Of a stretch of DNA of 42,090 nucleotides, positions 4,267 to 37,768 are shown piece after piece. Position numbers and translations under genes: made by a program. The stretch spans positions 1 through 42,090 of the forward strand of contig SICU01000002.1 in NCBI GenBank assembly GCA_009694755.1. The letters run 5' to 3'. Numbering within the stretch: position 1 is the first letter of the stretch; each line of letters starts with the position of its first letter. The stretch is from Candidatus Pacearchaeota archaeon. Lineage in GTDB: Archaea; Nanobdellota; Nanobdellia; Pacearchaeales; GW2011-AR1. The notes below the pieces were generated by a model, which saw nothing but the letters and a program-made list of their open reading frames with translations, made no database searches and was not told where the DNA came from.

Positions 4267-5270
4267 AGGAATACCTCTGCTCCACCAAGTTTTTTAGACT
4301 TTTCAGCAGCCTCTAAAACCTTTACAACATTAATTCCATCTTGGCCATCACTCATACAAGTTTCAGTACCTTGTATACATTTAAAAAAGTGTTCTACTTC
4401 CGTGACTAGAGGTTGAGATAAATTAATTTTTGGAATAAGAATATCTCCCTCTCGAGTTCCAGCCTGAAACTCTGAAAAGTTATTTGGATTGGGTAGGTAT
4501 TCAATTGAGCGATCGTAAATAGTAAGTTTCTCTGATGGATTAACATCATCAAACACAATAGCTTTTTTTGTTCCACCAACAACTATCCTTCTTTCTTTAA
4601 CGGGATGTGCCCAATTTGCGTATGCACTAGCAAATATCTTTCTGGGAAACTTCATGTTAACTGAAACAATCTCATCAATAGTATCCATATAGCCCCCACC
4701 AGAATAATTCACACTTATCGGAGCGGAACCGACTAGGTACATAAAAATATACACTTCATGAGAAATCAAATCCCATAATGCACTTGCATCATATCTCACT
4801 GGACCTAAGGCAACACGACGAGCATCAATATACCTTAAGTCTCCTATTTCACCAGCATCTATTCTACGCTTAAGTTCTCGCAGGGCATGATTATATTTGA
4901 ATATGTGTCCAACCATGAGTATTTTTCGCATGCTCTTTGCCATCTCGTTAAGTTTTTCTGACTCATCAAGGTGTAAAGTCAAAGGCTTTTCTATCAGTAC
5001 ATGTTTTCCAGCCTTCAAAACTTGGGAAGCTATATCAAAATGTGTTTTTGTAGGAGTTGCAATAATAACTGCCTGCACGTCAGAGTCATTAAGAATAGTA
5101 GCAATGTCTTTAGCAAAAGTCACTTCTTTTGGCAAAGATTTTGTTGGAGGATTGAGGTCATGAACATATTTCAAAAAAGCTCCACCAAAAACACCGTCGT
5201 TGTTGAATAAATTAAGATAATTTTTACCCCAATACCCACATCCAATCAAAGCAACAATAGTTTTTTGCAT
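4263..5270 (-). CDS. Gfo/Idh/MocA-family NAD(P)-dependent sugar oxidoreductase
   Basis: MQKTIVALIGCGYWGKNY is a Rossmann N-terminus, and HVLIEKPL is the family EKP motif. The tracked ORF opens with GTG at 5309; the ATG at 5270 gives the canonical N-terminus. Confidence 0.85.
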   Translation of the reverse strand: MQKTIVALIGCGYWGKNYLNLFNNDGVFGGAFLKYVHDLNPPTKSLPKEVTFAKDIATILNDSDVQAVIIATPTKTHFDIASQVLKAGKHVLIEKPLTLHLDESEKLNEMAKSMRKILMVGHIFKYNHALRELKRRIDAGEIGDLRYIDARRVALGPVRYDASALWDLISHEVYIFMYLVGSAPISVNYSGGGYMDTIDEIVSVNMKFPRKIFASAYANWAHPVKERRIVVGGTKKAIVFDDVNPSEKLTIYDRSIEYLPNPNNFSEFQAGTREGDILIPKINLSQPLVTEVEHFFKCIQGTETCMSDGQDGINVVKVLEAAEKSKKLGGAEVFL

Positions 5271-26978: not shown

Positions 26979-27715
26979 AATAACTTCCCCGATTGTTTCA
27001 AAGCAGCCATACAAGCGCCAGCAGAGTTGATAGTTGTTCTTCCTTGTCCTTGAGTGTAAGAATAAATATCTCTTATTCCAGCCAATCTCAAAATCTTTTT
27101 ACATTCATCTCCAATTACAAGTCCAGTTCCTTGAGGTGCAGGAATAAGTCGAATTCTTACGCTCCCACATCTTCCTTCAACTGTATGAGGGATGCTGTGG
27201 GGTTCTTTGCAAGAGCAGTCAAAATGCCCACATCCTCTTTTTACACTAATAATTTGTAGTTTCGCACGACGAATTGCTTTTTCTCTCGAAGGCAAAGTTT
27301 CTTTTGATTTTCCTAATCCAACACCAACGTGTCCATTTCTATCTCCAATAATAGCCATAGATGAAAAAGTTAAAACATTTCCTTCCATAGTTTTTTTCTG
27401 AGTTTGTCTCCATGCTCTTCTTTTTCCACCACCAAATTTACCTTTGGATTGTCCAACTAATAATAAATCTTTTTCAACAGAAATTAAACTATCTACAATT
27501 TCTGATTCAAGAATTTTTTTATGATTAGTAAGAACTTCATCGATAGATTTAATTCGCCCACTTTTTACATCTTTTCCAAGTTGAGTTTTAGGATTCCAAG
27601 AAGAAACAGTATCTTGTTTTACTGGTTCAACTTTAATTTCTACTTCCGGAACCAAAGGTGTTTCAGCGTATTCATCTTTAGCTTCTTCAACAGATTTCAT
27701 AATTTTCAATGTCAT
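26975..27715 (-). CDS. rps5: 30S ribosomal protein S5 (uS5)
   Basis: GGGKRRAWRQTQKKTMEGNVLTFSSMAIIGDRNGHVGVGLGKSKE and RLIPAPQGTGLV. Confidence 0.95.
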   Translation of the reverse strand: MTLKIMKSVEEAKDEYAETPLVPEVEIKVEPVKQDTVSSWNPKTQLGKDVKSGRIKSIDEVLTNHKKILESEIVDSLISVEKDLLLVGQSKGKFGGGKRRAWRQTQKKTMEGNVLTFSSMAIIGDRNGHVGVGLGKSKETLPSREKAIRRAKLQIISVKRGCGHFDCSCKEPHSIPHTVEGRCGSVRIRLIPAPQGTGLVIGDECKKILRLAGIRDIYSYTQGQGRTTINSAGACMAALKQSGKLL

Positions 27716-27789
27716 TGTTTAAGTTTTCCTCCTTGATTTATGGAAAATTTAAGCTTGAAAATATTATTTTCAGTATTTTGTATTTTCAT
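27712..27789 (-). CDS. intercistronic mini-ORF C (25 codons, MKIQNTENNIFKLKFSINQGGKLKQ) bridging L18 and S5
   Basis: Hand translation of the minus strand. The ATG overlaps the L18 TGA (ATGA, 27786-27789) and the TGA overlaps the S5 ATG (ATGA, 27712-27715). GGAGG lies inside its 3' end. Whether it is translated is unknown. Confidence 0.3.
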   Translation of the reverse strand: MKIQNTENNIFKLKFSINQGGKLKQ

Positions 27790-27804: not shown

Positions 27805-28274
27805 TTAATTTGATTAATAAGTTTTGCGGTTTCAGGTTTTTTATTTAATTGAGTTTCATCCGGCATAACGTCTTCTTTGCAAGGAATATCGAATCCTGCA
27901 TCTTTCAAACCTTTCACGAAAGCATAAGTTCGAGATTTAGGAACGTGTCTTATCAAACCCAAATCTAAAATTCCAGATTTAATATTTTTAGATTTATTAA
28001 CGAGCAAATATCCTAACAAATAAGCAGCAGGCAAACTTTTCAAACTTCCCTTTAATTTATCAGGCCATCCGTGATTTAGCAAATCTTTAGTGCTTACATT
28101 ACAAACTACTTTATCTTGTGCAATTTCAGAAACAACAATTTGCGCTAAAAGATATCTATTTGTTTTTCTAAATACTACTCGAGGTTTTTCAGAAGTCAAC
28201 AAATAAAGTCTCGCTTTATAGTCAGTTCTAGCTTCATATCTTCTTCGTCTTACTGTTCTTTGTACGCCTTTCAT
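27786..28274 (-). CDS. rpl18: 50S ribosomal protein L18 (uL18)
   Basis: RRRRYEARTDYKARLYLL ... PRVVFRKTNRYLLAQIV, in the expected operon position. Confidence 0.93.
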   Translation of the reverse strand: MKGVQRTVRRRRYEARTDYKARLYLLTSEKPRVVFRKTNRYLLAQIVVSEIAQDKVVCNVSTKDLLNHGWPDKLKGSLKSLPAAYLLGYLLVNKSKNIKSGILDLGLIRHVPKSRTYAFVKGLKDAGFDIPCKEDVMPDETQLNKKPETAKLINQIKGKLKQ

Positions 28275-28336
28275 TTTAGTTCTCCCAAATTTGAAAATGA
28301 AAGATTAAAAATTCCGATAATTTTTTGTTCTTTCAT
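28271..28336 (-). CDS. intercistronic mini-ORF A (21 codons, MKEQKIIGIFNLSFSNLGELK) bridging L19e and L18
   Basis: The ATG overlaps the L19e TGA (28333-28336) and the TGA overlaps the L18 ATG (28271-28274). Its sequence is identical to mini-ORF B. Confidence 0.3.
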   Translation of the reverse strand: MKEQKIIGIFNLSFSNLGELK

Positions 28337-28339
28337 TTT
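28294..28339 (-). promoter_or_regulatory. predicted RNA hairpin inside repeat copy A, covering the upstream stop and mini-ORF start
   Basis: There are 11 bp (28294-28304 with 28329-28339), a 2x3 internal loop, 7 bp (28307-28313 with 28319-25) and a 5-nt loop (ccgat on the plus strand). Pairing was checked by hand. Confidence 0.4.
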
Positions 28340-28767
28340 AGTTCTCCAGATTTTTTAATTTTTCCTTTTTTCATTGTCTCAATATGCTCTTTCAAATGAG
28401 CTTTACTTTTGAAATTTTTACTTCTAATTTCCTTTCTTAATTTCATAAATTCTTCATTTGTAATTTTTGATTGTTTACGCATTTCAGAAATATATGCTCT
28501 TGATTTTCTTGTGATTATCATATATTCTCGTTTACGATTATTTGGTTTCATACGAATACTTCCAGCACGGCGTCTTTTTCTCACAGTATTGACTTTTCTT
28601 CCTTTAATTTCTCTAATAAATATTGCTTTATCAGAAACTAAATCTCTTATGTCTTGCTTAGTAATTGCTTCTTTTATATCGTCAAGTCGTTGAGTGTTAA
28701 ACATTACCCTTCCTTCTCCAATACCTAAAGTTCTTGCAACTAACGATTTCTTTTTACTTAGATCCAT
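28333..28767 (-). CDS. rpl19e: 50S ribosomal protein L19e (eL19)
   Basis: LSKKKSLVARTLGIGEGRVMF ... IRKRRRAGSIRMKP. The ATG at 28767 is preceded by GGAGG with a 5-nt spacer, so it is preferred over the ATG at 28782. The last 8 codons (IKKSGELK) lie inside the 93-bp repeat. Confidence 0.9.
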   Translation of the reverse strand: MDLSKKKSLVARTLGIGEGRVMFNTQRLDDIKEAITKQDIRDLVSDKAIFIREIKGRKVNTVRKRRRAGSIRMKPNNRKREYMIITRKSRAYISEMRKQSKITNEEFMKLRKEIRSKNFKSKAHLKEHIETMKKGKIKKSGELK

Positions 28768-29110
28768 GTTTTCCTCCGACATTTAAAATAGTCAAATTCA
28801 TTTCTTGAGCTCTCTTTATAAATTCGATTTTTTTCTTAGCACCAATTCTACGAGAGATAATTAAAATATTTTCTTTAGTCGCATTAGAAAAATCTTTAGA
28901 TGTTGAAATTAACAACGGCATTTTTCCATTTATTTTTCCAGATTCTTCTCTCGGAGATTTGAAACCAATTCGAGGAGATTTAGTATAACCAAATCTATTT
29001 TTTCTAATTTTGTTATGTCTTCCTACTGCGGCTCTCCATTTTTGAAGTTTAGGTCTGTTTCTACCGAGCTTACTCAATTTCACAGTATTTCTTCTTACAA
29101 ATTGTTTCAT
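28754..29110 (-). CDS. rpl32e: 50S ribosomal protein L32e (eL32)
   Basis: KQFVRRNTVKLSKLGRNRPKLQKWRAAVGRHNKIR. There is an ATGA overlap with the L6 stop. Confidence 0.9.
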   Translation of the reverse strand: MKQFVRRNTVKLSKLGRNRPKLQKWRAAVGRHNKIRKNRFGYTKSPRIGFKSPREESGKINGKMPLLISTSKDFSNATKENILIISRRIGAKKKIEFIKRAQEMNLTILNVGGKHGSK

Positions 29111-29650: not shown

Positions 29651-29803
29651 TCAATGTGCCTCCGGAAAACTCATTTTTAAAGATTTGGCACTTTGAGCAC
29701 AAGAAATTTTTTCATCTTGACAAATTTCTGTGCAACAAATTCTATTAGAAAATAATTTGTTTGCATACAAAAAACTACGGATAAATCTAAAAGTTTTTTT
29801 CAT
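29651..29803 (-). CDS. intercistronic mini-ORF D (50 codons, MKKTFRFIRSFLYANKLFSNRICCTEICQDEKISCAQSAKSLKMSFPEAH) bridging S8 and L6
   Basis: Hand translation. The ATG begins 1 nt after the S8 TAA (TAACATG) and the TGA ends 1 nt before the L6 ATG (TGACATG). The first 5 residues equal the L6 N-terminus. It has four Cys and falls below the ORF-track length cut-off. Confidence 0.3.
   Translation of the reverse strand: MKKTFRFIRSFLYANKLFSNRICCTEICQDEKISCAQSAKSLKMSFPEAH
29697..29733 (-). promoter_or_regulatory. predicted RNA hairpin inside the S8/L6 insert
   Basis: gcacaagaaattt (29697-29709) pairs with aaatttctgtgc (29722-29733). That gives 12 bp with one bulged nucleotide and a 12-nt loop, checked by hand. 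Confidence 0.4.
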
Positions 29804-31945: not shown

Positions 31946-32343
31946 AATACAAATTGCGCAATTTTTGCGACTCCCTTCCATCTTTCAAAAACTTCTTTCG
32001 AAACAGGACCCTTAACTTGAGTTCCCTTCGGGTTACCTTTATCATCTTTAAGTAACGCAACAGCATTATCTTCAAACATAACTCTTTCACCAGTATTTCT
32101 TTTGTAAGGTTTTCTTTGACGAATAACAATCGCATCAAATACTTGTCCTTTCATATCTGGTTTTCCAGCACGAACTGAAACTTTAACCATATCAGCCATC
32201 TTAACATATTGTTGAGTTCCCTTCGGAGTTTTACCTTTTTTAACTCCACAAATTCTTACAAGTCTCGCACCACTATTATCGCTCGCAACTACGACGCTCC
32301 CTAAATTTAATCCTCTCGTTGCTCTTGCTGGAATTGCTTTCAT
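31942..32343 (-). CDS. rpl14: 50S ribosomal protein L14 (uL14)
   Basis: LNLGSVVVASDNSGARLVRICGVKKG ... AIVIRQRKPYKR. Confidence 0.95.
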   Translation of the reverse strand: MKAIPARATRGLNLGSVVVASDNSGARLVRICGVKKGKTPKGTQQYVKMADMVKVSVRAGKPDMKGQVFDAIVIRQRKPYKRNTGERVMFEDNAVALLKDDKGNPKGTQVKGPVSKEVFERWKGVAKIAQFVL

Positions 32344-32405
32344 TTTAGTTCTCCCAAATTTGAAAATGAAAGATTAAAAATTCCGATAATTTTTTGTTCT
32401 TTCAT
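32340..32405 (-). CDS. intercistronic mini-ORF B (21 codons, identical to mini-ORF A) bridging S17 and L14
   Basis: The ATG overlaps the S17 TGA (32402-32405) and the TGA overlaps the L14 ATG (32340-32343). Confidence 0.3.
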   Translation of the reverse strand: MKEQKIIGIFNLSFSNLGELK

Positions 32406-32408
32406 TTT
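32363..32408 (-). promoter_or_regulatory. predicted RNA hairpin inside repeat copy B (same as 28294-28339)
   Basis: The sequence is identical to copy A, offset by 4069 nt. Confidence 0.4.
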
Positions 32409-32710
32409 AGTTCTCCAGATTTTTTAATTATTTCAATAACAACTGAATGAATCATTTTACTCAAAGGTCTACATTCTTGAACTTTAACATAATCTCCAAT
32501 ATTAATAACCACACCTTCAGGAATTCTCGAATGTAATTTTGTTTTTTTACGCATAAATCTTTCATATTTTTGAACCTTCACAGTACGTTCGAATTCAATT
32601 ACTGCTCTTTGTCCGAAAATTTTAGTAACGGTTCCCTGAAAACTTCTTCCTCGAGTTCCAACTACAAAATTCTGTGCATTTCGCTGTGTTTCTATTTGTT
32701 TTTCTATCAT
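32402..32710 (-). CDS. rps17: 30S ribosomal protein S17 (uS17)
   Basis: GRSFQGTVTKIFGQRAVIEFERTVKVQKYERFMRKKTKLHSRIPEG...GDYVKVQECRPLSK. The last 8 codons (IKKSGELK) lie in the 93-bp repeat. Confidence 0.92.
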   Translation of the reverse strand: MIEKQIETQRNAQNFVVGTRGRSFQGTVTKIFGQRAVIEFERTVKVQKYERFMRKKTKLHSRIPEGVVINIGDYVKVQECRPLSKMIHSVVIEIIKKSGELK

Positions 32711-37675: not shown

Positions 37676-37709
37676 TATAAATCTTCGCCCCAAATATTGA
37701 AGATTTATA
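37676..37709. repeat. 11-bp inverted repeat (tataaatcttc / gaagatttata) with 12-nt loop
   Basis: Hand-checked pairing of 37676-37686 with 37699-37709. One arm contains a TTTATATA (minus strand) TATA-like box. Confidence 0.7.
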
Positions 37710-37731
37710 CTTAACAACATCAGTTGGCATT

Positions 37732-37768
37732 GTTTAAACTTTGCTCTATATTTTTGCAAAGTTTAAAC
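37732..37768. repeat. perfect 13-bp inverted repeat (gtttaaactttgc / gcaaagtttaaac) with 11-nt loop
   Basis: Hand-checked pairing of 37732-37744 with 37756-37768. Confidence 0.8.

Follow-up and report, generated by a model that had tools for sequence, protein, structure and literature searches.

A recently copied mini-cistron cassette at stop/start junctions of a ribosomal-protein operon in Pacearchaeota

A repeated cassette between ribosomal-protein genes

The stretch of DNA analyzed here comprises 42,090 nt from a Candidatus Pacearchaeota archaeon (positions 1 to 42,090 of contig SICU01000002.1, assembly GCA_009694755.1; hereafter "the window") and carries a canonical archaeal ribosomal-protein cluster. 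Its coding strand is the minus strand, and the genes follow in the order L3, L4, L23, L2, S19, L22, S3, L29, SUI1, S17, L14, L24, S4e, L5, S14, S8, L6, L32e, L19e, L18, S5, L30, L15, and SecY. Two stop/start junctions of this operon contain the same 93-nt unit: copy A at S17/L14 (32337–32429, minus strand), which is present in all five strains examined and is the probable donor, and copy B at L19e/L18 (28268–28360, minus strand), a recent copy. The two are identical at 93/93 positions; the first mismatch falls at position 94 and is followed by two matches (95/96). No other long repeat occurs in the 42-kb window, and in a comparison of the operon junctions none other resembled these two.

On the coding strand, each copy reads A-ATT-AAA-AAA-TCT-GGA-GAA-CTA-AAA-TGA, which encodes the C terminus IKKSGELK and the stop codon of the upstream gene, i.e., of S17 (32402–32710, minus strand; PF00366) in copy A and of L19e (28333–28782, minus strand; PF01280) in copy B. 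The TGA overlaps the ATG of a 21-codon mini-open reading frame (mini-ORF), MKEQKIIGIFNLSFSNLGELK, which is identical at both sites (32340–32405 and 28271–28336, minus strand) and whose own TGA overlaps the ATG of L14 (31942–32343) or L18 (27786–28274). Two successive ATGA overlaps require a period of 2 mod 3, and the 62-nt period of the unit satisfies this requirement. The 18-mer GGAGAACTAAAATGAAAG occurs exactly four times in the window (at 28268, 28330, 32337, and 32399, all on the minus strand; about 0.08 matches expected by chance), twice in each cassette at a distance of 62 nt. The upstream repeats (32399–32416 in copy A, with its partner at 32337–32354; 28330–28347 in copy B, with its partner at 28268–28285; all minus strand) contain a Shine-Dalgarno (SD)-like GGAG, a 7-nt spacer, and an ATG, and the same arrangement of a GGAG 7 nt upstream of an ATG is found at both ends of the cassette, each with a −4 overlap. 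The 44-nt interior occurs exactly twice (0 expected). A first-pass annotation of this DNA had reported a perfect 93-bp repeat spanning a gene end, a 21-codon mini-ORF, and the next gene start, together with an 18-nt direct repeat that flanks 44 nt in a 62-nt phase, and all these counts proved exact. The 93-nt unit is a mini-cistron cassette on the stop/start junctions of an archaeal ribosomal-protein operon, composed of the last eight upstream codons, a 21-codon ORF, an SD-like GGAG, and an internal anti-start, CUUUCAUUUU.

Because the sequence derives from a metagenome assembly, one of the copies might be an artefact of assembly or polishing, a concern already raised in the first-pass annotation; likewise, the unit might be a bulge-helix-bulge (BHB) intron or a C/D box small RNA (sRNA) gene within the operon, given that its size of 50–62 nt resembles that of archaeal C/D box sRNAs and mini-introns. 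Both possibilities are very improbable. Independent contigs break precisely at the repeat edges: Logan contig L001 (SRR8561390; contigs from other assemblies are designated by L and three digits) ends exactly 30 nt into the repeat, and contigs L004 (SRR8561390) and L005 (SRR12053441) both begin exactly 30 nt ahead of the first base by which L14 and L18 can be told apart. Such breaks at both edges in two runs are what a de Bruijn graph with k = 31 would give for a genuine two-copy repeat. In addition, the repeat is shorter than typical reads, the gene order is canonical on both sides, and two ENA contigs of ERZ1305449 (44.8 kb and 29.05 kb) show L19e/L18 in its filled state, again with a gap of 58 nt. 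The 144-aa form of L19e was found only in ERZ1305449, and an exact look-up of the 149-aa form returned nothing because gene callers had placed the start later. An exact 24-mer of the window cassette had 0 matches in genome and metagenome contig collections, which lack the source species.

Archaeal BHB introns are defined by a bulge-helix-bulge motif at both boundaries. The folds of the cassette, which were inspected without a dedicated scan, are plain hairpins with a 4 × 4 internal loop, and the two boundaries of the cassette are identical rather than complementary. C/D box sRNAs carry a C box (RUGAUGA) and a D box (CUGA) that form a kink-turn; inspection of the sequence revealed neither box on either strand. 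Rfam searches gave nothing relevant (the window at the gathering threshold, the elements and contig L037 at E ≤ 1), and a scan for tRNAs found none. The conserved reading phase, moreover, would make no sense if the RNA were spliced or processed.

Copying between junctions within the species

The distribution of the cassette among close relatives suggests that the two copies differ in age. The contigs of L002 and L003 are 98–99% identical to the window across the operon. Both contain the S17/L14 cassette, as do L006 and L007, with one synonymous difference (TCG for TCT). At L19e/L18, by contrast, the 62-nt insert is missing from L002 and L003, where the sequence is ...CTTAAAAAATCGGGAGAACTAAAATAAAATGAAAGG; only the window lineage has a filled site. 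The nearest species representative, L008 (75% L18 identity), has the cassette at neither site. Its junctions are tight (gaps of −4 and +1), its S17 ends in ...IIRSANAVGVAQ, its L19e ends in ...LMQGSK* without the IKKSGELK tail, and its L18 starts with MQGV. By parsimony, this pattern of presence and absence indicates that the insertion at S17/L14 arose within this species, to which it is specific, and very recently gave rise to the secondary copy at L19e/L18.

The recipient site apparently resembled the donor before the event. The empty L19e/L18 site already had the KKSGELK tail, a stretch of 24 nt that is nearly identical to the tail of S17 and was gained before the cassette, so that identity between the two junctions already extended over about 24 nt on the left side and about 10 nt (AAAATGAAAG) on the right side. 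In the window, L19e reads ATT...TCT like the S17 of the window, whereas L19e of L002 and L003 reads CTT...TCG, which implies that donor-flank bases outside the 62-nt insert were also transferred. Flanking identity combined with co-conversion is a hallmark of gene conversion and not of a transposon whose ends are fixed, and ectopic gene conversion from S17/L14, with co-conversion of two donor-flank bases, is therefore the favored mechanism. The first-pass annotation had postulated recent copying, either by transposition of a miniature element or by gene conversion. The recency is confirmed by the near-identical strains that have the S17/L14 copy without the L19e/L18 insert, and the comparison of orthologous junctions it had proposed revealed the empty site in L002 and L003 and the tight junctions of L008. 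Of the two mechanisms, conversion appears to account for this particular event, whereas the miniature element applies at the level of the family, since the cassette belongs to a widespread group of insertions at start codons.

Two other origins were rejected. The 18-nt direct repeat does not represent a target duplication of the transposase type, because other filled/empty sites carry direct repeats of 3, 5, 6, and 12 nt. An origin of the 62-nt unit by tandem duplication was dismissed upon inspection, because the 44-nt interior is unlike the 3′ end of S17 and has homologous counterparts at unrelated junctions.

Further junctions differ among these strains. L002 has a 52-nt insert at L23/L2 with the mini-ORF MKNENFSNARNKRYCFA. 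At L22/S3, an insert of 126 nt in both L002 and L003 comprises two mini-ORFs in tandem; the first, MEIIKINIFKFSFSIGELK, includes CGGAGAACTAAAATGAAA and clearly shares homology with the window cassette. In L003, an insert of about 176 nt at L5/S14 contains a 57-codon ORF; the insert of L002 at the same junction (L002:7695–7790) consists of an N run between two copies of the same ~55-nt sequence and represents a scaffolding gap in a repeat. The varying lengths of the flanking direct repeats at filled/empty sites (3, 5, 6, and 12 nt) argue against a fixed target duplication. All strains have a bridging mini-ORF at L18/S5. The version in the window (27712–27789, minus strand), an older and diverged relative, encodes MKIQNTENNIFKLKFSINQGGKLKQ between two copies of a ~19-nt direct repeat, AGGAAAACTTAAACAATGA; its mini-ORF ends by repeating GKLKQ, the tail of L18. 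It is absent from L008 (gap of −4).

A family of cassettes at start codons

The window cassette is a diverged member of a family of cassettes that are located at start codons in Pacearchaeota and Woesearchaeota, mostly in front of translation and transcription genes. Searches of the full-text literature, Rfam, and Pfam found no description of these elements, and the family is apparently undescribed. The core family has the consensus ATGAAAGCAAATC-AAAGATTTTCATTCATTCGAAAT...GGAGG..TTCAAATGA and encodes peptides such as MKANQRFSFIRN..GG.FK. A covariance model (R1) built from 21 members was used to search 897 kb, 36% of which lay outside the L3–L15 span. Of the 50 matches, 49 were on the operon strand. 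All 35 matches of at least 30 bits from outside the window fell within the L3–L15 span, and 34 of them coincided with junctions, the downstream ATG always occupying the same position of the model. The occupied sites include S17/L14, L5/S14, L22/S3, L19e/L18, and L4/L23, but also L3/L4, L24/S4e, S5/L30, S4e/L5, and S19/L22. When the window was searched alone, it gave no credible match apart from its two copies (29.4 bits with E = 0.0012 and 23.4 bits with E = 0.015). Albeit weakly, these copies match the model with the ATG at the fixed position; they also share with the core family a sense mini-ORF that bridges stop and ATG, an SD 7–9 nt before the ATG, and a predicted hairpin (H2) in which the anti-start is paired to the downstream AUG and the SD lies in the loop.

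A 20-mer scan of JGI metagenomes yielded 18 matches, of which 14 are new members; the other four were set aside as chance matches because they lack the architecture of the element. The new members are located at main-operon sites, at S13/S4 and RpoE′/Spt4, upstream of L35Ae and of an L41e-like gene, and also before genes encoding a peptidase M16 and a phosphoglycerate mutase (ApgM), which indicates that start codons are the target, predominantly but not exclusively those of translation and transcription genes. No match to the core 20-mer was found in viral contigs. Copies at different junctions of the same genome are on average 65% identical (80–88% in the best pairs) vs. 54% for copies at the same junction of different genomes, which indicates copying or homogenization within genomes.

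The same architecture emerged from a survey of 52 operons from genomes of Pacearchaeota, Woesearchaeota, and Nanoarchaeota. Junctions that are normally tight often hold spacers of about 45–130 nt or about 200–480 nt, in lineage-specific patterns. After exclusion of 40 mere N-terminal extensions of the next gene from the 133 spacers of 38–135 nt, 59 of the remaining 93 proved to be fully bridged by in-phase chains of mini-ORFs (8.8% in shuffles). With an annotation-free set of ORFs, 41/59 spacers were bridged inside the operon (11% in shuffles) vs. 3/81 outside (2.4% in shuffles). In 51 of the 63 mini-ORF units, the end overlaps the following start codon in the −4 (ATGA) or −1 (TAATG) configuration. 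The mini-ORFs comprise 13–37 codons, and the family elements measure 42–70 nt.

The predicted hairpins of the cassette involve its start codons. In hairpin H1 of copy A (32363–32408, minus strand; 28294–28339 in copy B), AAAAUGAAAGA at the start of the mini-ORF would pair with the anti-start UCUUUCAUUUU, capped by an inner stem AAAAAUU/AAUUUUU. In the alternative hairpin H2 (32337–32372, minus strand; 28268–28303 in copy B), CUUUCAUUUU would form 10 bp with AAAAUGAAAG at the start of L14, with GGGAG in the loop, and according to the predicted fold, the anti-start is able to pair with either copy of AAAAUGAAAG. The predicted energies are −14.7 kcal/mol for the whole 93-nt unit (z = −2.2), −11.0 kcal/mol for H1 alone, and −6.1 (L14) and −7.2 (L18) kcal/mol for H2. 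In the core family, the internal anti-start UCAUUCGAAAU of H2 pairs with AUUUCAAAUGA, so that the 3′ arm contains the downstream AUG and the loop contains GGAGG.

Helices were proposed from single folds and then tested explicitly. H2 is a conserved feature of the core family, and covariation in two independent alignments supports it. In a MAFFT alignment (A1), 83.4% of the cells are paired vs. 71.6% in shuffles (0/500), with two-sided changes at 7 of 11 pairs, whereas slid registers pair at most 56%. The result was replicated with 19 sequences outside the model (85.2% vs. 79.0%, 0/500; six two-sided pairs). RNAalifold found no consensus structure in the MAFFT core alignment. Of the helices at the start of the mini-ORF, pairing with TTTTCATT (H1a) shows no covariation, is no better than in shuffles, and was rejected, whereas pairing with the anti-start (H1b) is good but almost invariant and therefore uninformative. 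Codon-position entropies of 0.78, 0.83, and 0.67 identify the third position as the least variable, which rules out selection at the level of the peptide and indicates that conservation acts on nucleotides and structure.

Two further families of mini-cistrons were encountered in L011, L013 (several junctions), L046, L019, L023, L024, and L002 (2285–2336). One encodes MTETSFSTNKN.GGEFS* at L2/S19, L5/S14, L22/S3, and S5/L30, with a nested copy in S19/L22; the other encodes peptides ending in ..GDFA* or CFA*. Both end in a stem, a loop that contains the SD, the returning strand of the stem, and (G)CATAATG, which creates a −1 overlap. The core element of L050 at L5/S14 (L050:7859–7981) is interrupted in its middle by a GC-rich insertion of about 55 nt (46% GC) that leaves the mini-ORF open at 36 codons and has the appearance of either a nested insertion or a structured RNA within this ORF. 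In the window, the 155-nt S8/L6 spacer contains a 50-codon bridging ORF (29651–29803, minus strand) that opens with MKKTF exactly like L6, so that the start of L6 is duplicated; within it is a nested insert of 66 nt (29697–29762) with two short inverted repeats, which is absent from L002 and L003.

Larger spacers were observed in another member of the Pacearchaeota (SO_2017_SWC_18, JBAZOZ010000020.1; L039:1–11500), where nearly every operon junction contains a complete orphan ORF of 70–110 aa. These ORFs occupy spacers of 200–340 nt, start at or beside the upstream stop, and end at or beside the downstream ATG; the inserts at L14/L24 and S4e/L5 are paralogs. A Pfam search of the ten junction ORFs of L039 for nucleases or transposases gave no credible match. 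Similar large junction spacers are present in L048, L057, L012, L013, and L038. The SUI1/S17 spacer of L039 (2841–2959) differs from the other junction spacers of the locus in its GC content (43% vs. about 21–31%) and its obvious self-complementarity, and may be a structured RNA.

Other features of the window lie in or beside the operon. A gene for a VIT1-family membrane protein (PF01988; 25254–25847, plus strand) between L15 and SecY breaks the co-directional cluster, and the spacer between L15 and this gene is replaced by a different sequence of about 430 nt in L002 and L003. Upstream of L3 (about 37690–37735; 4358–4403 in coding-strand coordinates), the window contains about 45 nt that L002 lacks, adjoining a short palindrome, CTTTGCAAAAA..GCAAAGTTTAAA. 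A 63-aa ORF between L30 and L15 (26371–26562, minus strand), which overlaps both genes and has a CxC...CxxC arrangement of cysteines (MNKSKVAWECNCGAIAYGKLPPAECLKCD...), may encode a small zinc-ribbon protein resident in the operon. It is kept in position in L002 and L003, and L008 has a spacer of the same size; no Pfam match was found.

Proposed relay of translation and alternative explanations

The most plausible explanation overall, and probably the correct one, is a mini-cistron cassette of the start-codon family that was recently copied by gene conversion and relays translation across its own insertion. In the archaeon Haloferax volcanii, 22–23 nt between stop and start abolish reinitiation (PMC10666635). 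In an accepted model of coupling, the upstream ribosome unfolds a hairpin around the downstream ribosome-binding site or start codon (PMC12548453), and in Escherichia coli the last 15 nt of the upstream ORF are enough for coupling (PMC10666635). By these spacing limits and this model, an insertion of 58 nt should uncouple L14 or L18 from the preceding gene, because an untranslated gap of this length would abolish termination-reinitiation. The mini-ORF would circumvent this effect: the ribosome that terminates on the upstream gene would restart on the mini-ORF, its translation would melt the hairpin that sequesters the next AUG, and the ribosome would then terminate on this AUG and restart on the downstream gene. 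Even an operon that is essential and tightly coupled would tolerate insertions of such a design, which could accumulate in it; this would explain why insertions of this design only are seen in the operon.

Several points weigh against this explanation. Both the translation of the mini-ORF and the role of the hairpin are deduced from the sequence. The scores of the window copies in the R1 search are low compared with the 45–84 bits of core members, their H2 is in a slightly different register from the core consensus, and their membership in the family rests partly on shared architecture. The specificity for the operon is based on about 10 kb of flank per side rather than on whole genomes. Some members precede first genes or non-ribosomal genes (peptidase M16, ApgM), where an inter-cistron relay cannot be the whole story. 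The flanking direct repeats of 3–18 nt fit microhomology but are no proof of recombination and would be compatible also with an unknown enzyme. Finally, both copies may be ancestral, with a deletion of 57 nt in the lineage of L002 and L003. This history is less parsimonious, because the deletion would have to restore the ancestral TAAAATG by chance and be accompanied by further point changes.

Among the alternatives, classical transposition of a non-autonomous element, moved in trans by a transposase from another part of the genome, deserves the most attention, although it is unlikely. The element would resemble a miniature inverted-repeat transposable element (MITE), a repetitive extragenic palindrome (REP), or a palindrome-associated transposable element (PATE), with an enzyme (for example, of the HUH or IS200/IS605 type) that recognizes a hairpin and a short target such as AATG; the two copies in the window would then be independent insertions. 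Such a mechanism would agree with the multi-copy nature of the family, its conserved hairpin, strict orientation, and fixed position relative to the ATG, the polymorphism between near-identical strains, the greater similarity of copies within a genome, and the presence of members at unrelated genes (peptidase M16, ApgM). However, there are no terminal inverted repeats, as the inverted repeat of start and anti-start is internal and the ends of the unit are direct repeats. The flanking duplications vary between 3 and 18 nt (18–19 nt at the window cassettes), and a comparison of L013 with L011 showed no clean duplication. The second copy in the window carries 13 nt of donor coding flank and co-converted single-nucleotide differences, which would not be expected of a defined transposon. 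No transposase was seen in the window or in the loci of relatives, none of the junction ORFs of L039 has a credible Pfam match, and the core 20-mer has no match in viral contigs. An autonomous insertion sequence (IS) with matching ends was likewise not seen in the 42 kb of the window or in the ~20-kb loci of relatives.

Selection by the host offers a different explanation, in which the mini-ORF and a switchable hairpin tune the stoichiometry of ribosomal proteins and the cassette spreads by its benefit rather than by tolerance. The compensatory changes that maintain the sequestration of the downstream AUG in H2, the attenuator-like ability of the anti-start to pair with either start, and the strong enrichment at translation and transcription genes would all be in line with a regulatory device. 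The occupied sites, however, differ between close relatives and even strains, the nearest species has no cassette at these junctions, and no junction is consistently occupied; such a patchy, polymorphic distribution is expected of neutral or selfish insertions that are filtered by tolerance, and a regulatory role is rather improbable. Even less credible is the notion that the repeat is a duplicated small gene encoding a functional micro-protein. It is true that the ORF is always open and that the peptides share the motifs F-S-F-I and GG.FK, but these motifs coincide with the nucleotides of anti-start, SD, and stem, the third codon positions vary least, the lengths range from 13 to 37 codons, and neither Pfam nor any other family was recognized.

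The closest functional analogs of the cassette are the engineered bicistronic design (BCD) and natural leader cistrons. In these systems, a short leader ORF contains the SD of the downstream gene (PMC5995908; bioRxiv 10.1101/2023.02.09.527918; PMC12548453), the stop of the leader overlaps the downstream start (ATGA or TAATG), and the helicase activity of the ribosome has been proposed to open structures at the downstream start, as is proposed here for the cassette. All sequence features of this design are present in the cassette (a short ORF, the SD for the next gene inside, and a stop/start overlap). While BCD is engineered, the cassettes are natural, multi-copy, polymorphic archaeal insertions, and unlike BCD, they sit between two cistrons as a relay and have a conserved start-sequestering hairpin. 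Archaeal termination-reinitiation is known from −4 and −1 overlaps (PMC6728339, PMC10666635), and the cassette recreates the preferred ATGA and TAATG at both of its ends; whereas the known coupling joins two native genes, an inserted mini-cistron here supplies two successive overlaps.

The similarities to known repeats are more limited. REP sequences and bacterial interspersed mosaic elements (BIMEs) are extragenic, imperfect palindromes of about 35 nt with a conserved 5′ GTAG and an associated gene for a REP-associated tyrosine transposase (RAYT). The cassettes have no GTAG head, overlap coding ends, and can be read as an ORF. With MITEs, REP/BIMEs, enterobacterial repetitive intergenic consensus (ERIC) sequences, and Correia-type repeats, they share that they are non-autonomous, short, hairpin-forming, multi-copy, strain-variable, and often co-transcribed within operons (PMC10969869). 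They differ in having neither terminal inverted repeats nor a fixed target duplication nor an identified parent IS or RAYT, in their strict orientation and reading phase, and in carrying a start codon, a stop codon, and an SD. The closest translation-compatible genomic parasites are the Rickettsia palindromic elements (RPEs), small, palindromic, multi-copy, lineage-specific repeats that are tolerated in essential coding regions (PMC10969869). However, RPEs are bacterial, measure about 100–150 bp, and are inserted in-frame in a host ORF, so that they are translated within the host protein (PMC10969869), whereas the cassettes are archaeal, measure 42–70 nt, and form a separate mini-cistron on the stop/start overlap between ORFs. 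There is no sequence relationship, and the resemblance is confined to translation-compatible tolerance.

Within this cassette family, the 93-nt repeat results from a recent copying event. A more far-reaching interpretation, which we consider tentative, is that the cassettes constitute a new class of self-propagating "translational relay" elements, i.e., mobile DNA specialized for the start codons of highly expressed, coupled genes, whose own start, stop, SD, and start-sequestering hairpin would keep the host operon working. Such elements would have colonized the most conserved gene cluster of DPANN archaea, and the orphan ORFs of 70–110 aa in L039 would be their cargo-carrying versions.

Ribosomal-protein operons are a textbook case of frozen gene order and tight translational coupling. 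Here, strains that are 98–99% identical differ by several indels of 50–430 nt at or beside the junctions of this operon, and these indels follow a common engineering logic. If the proposed relay operates, the cassette would be a natural, portable bicistronic adaptor, designed independently by synthetic biologists, and would provide a direct natural test of the distance rule for archaeal termination-reinitiation. Mini-ORFs of 13–37 codons are never reported by gene callers, and pipelines that rely on concatenated ribosomal-protein markers may misplace both starts and ends of the genes beside the insertions. The KKSGELK tails of S17 and L19e are species-specific and identical at the DNA level, and the family as a whole offers a marker at the strain level and a means to follow recombination in uncultivated DPANN archaea.

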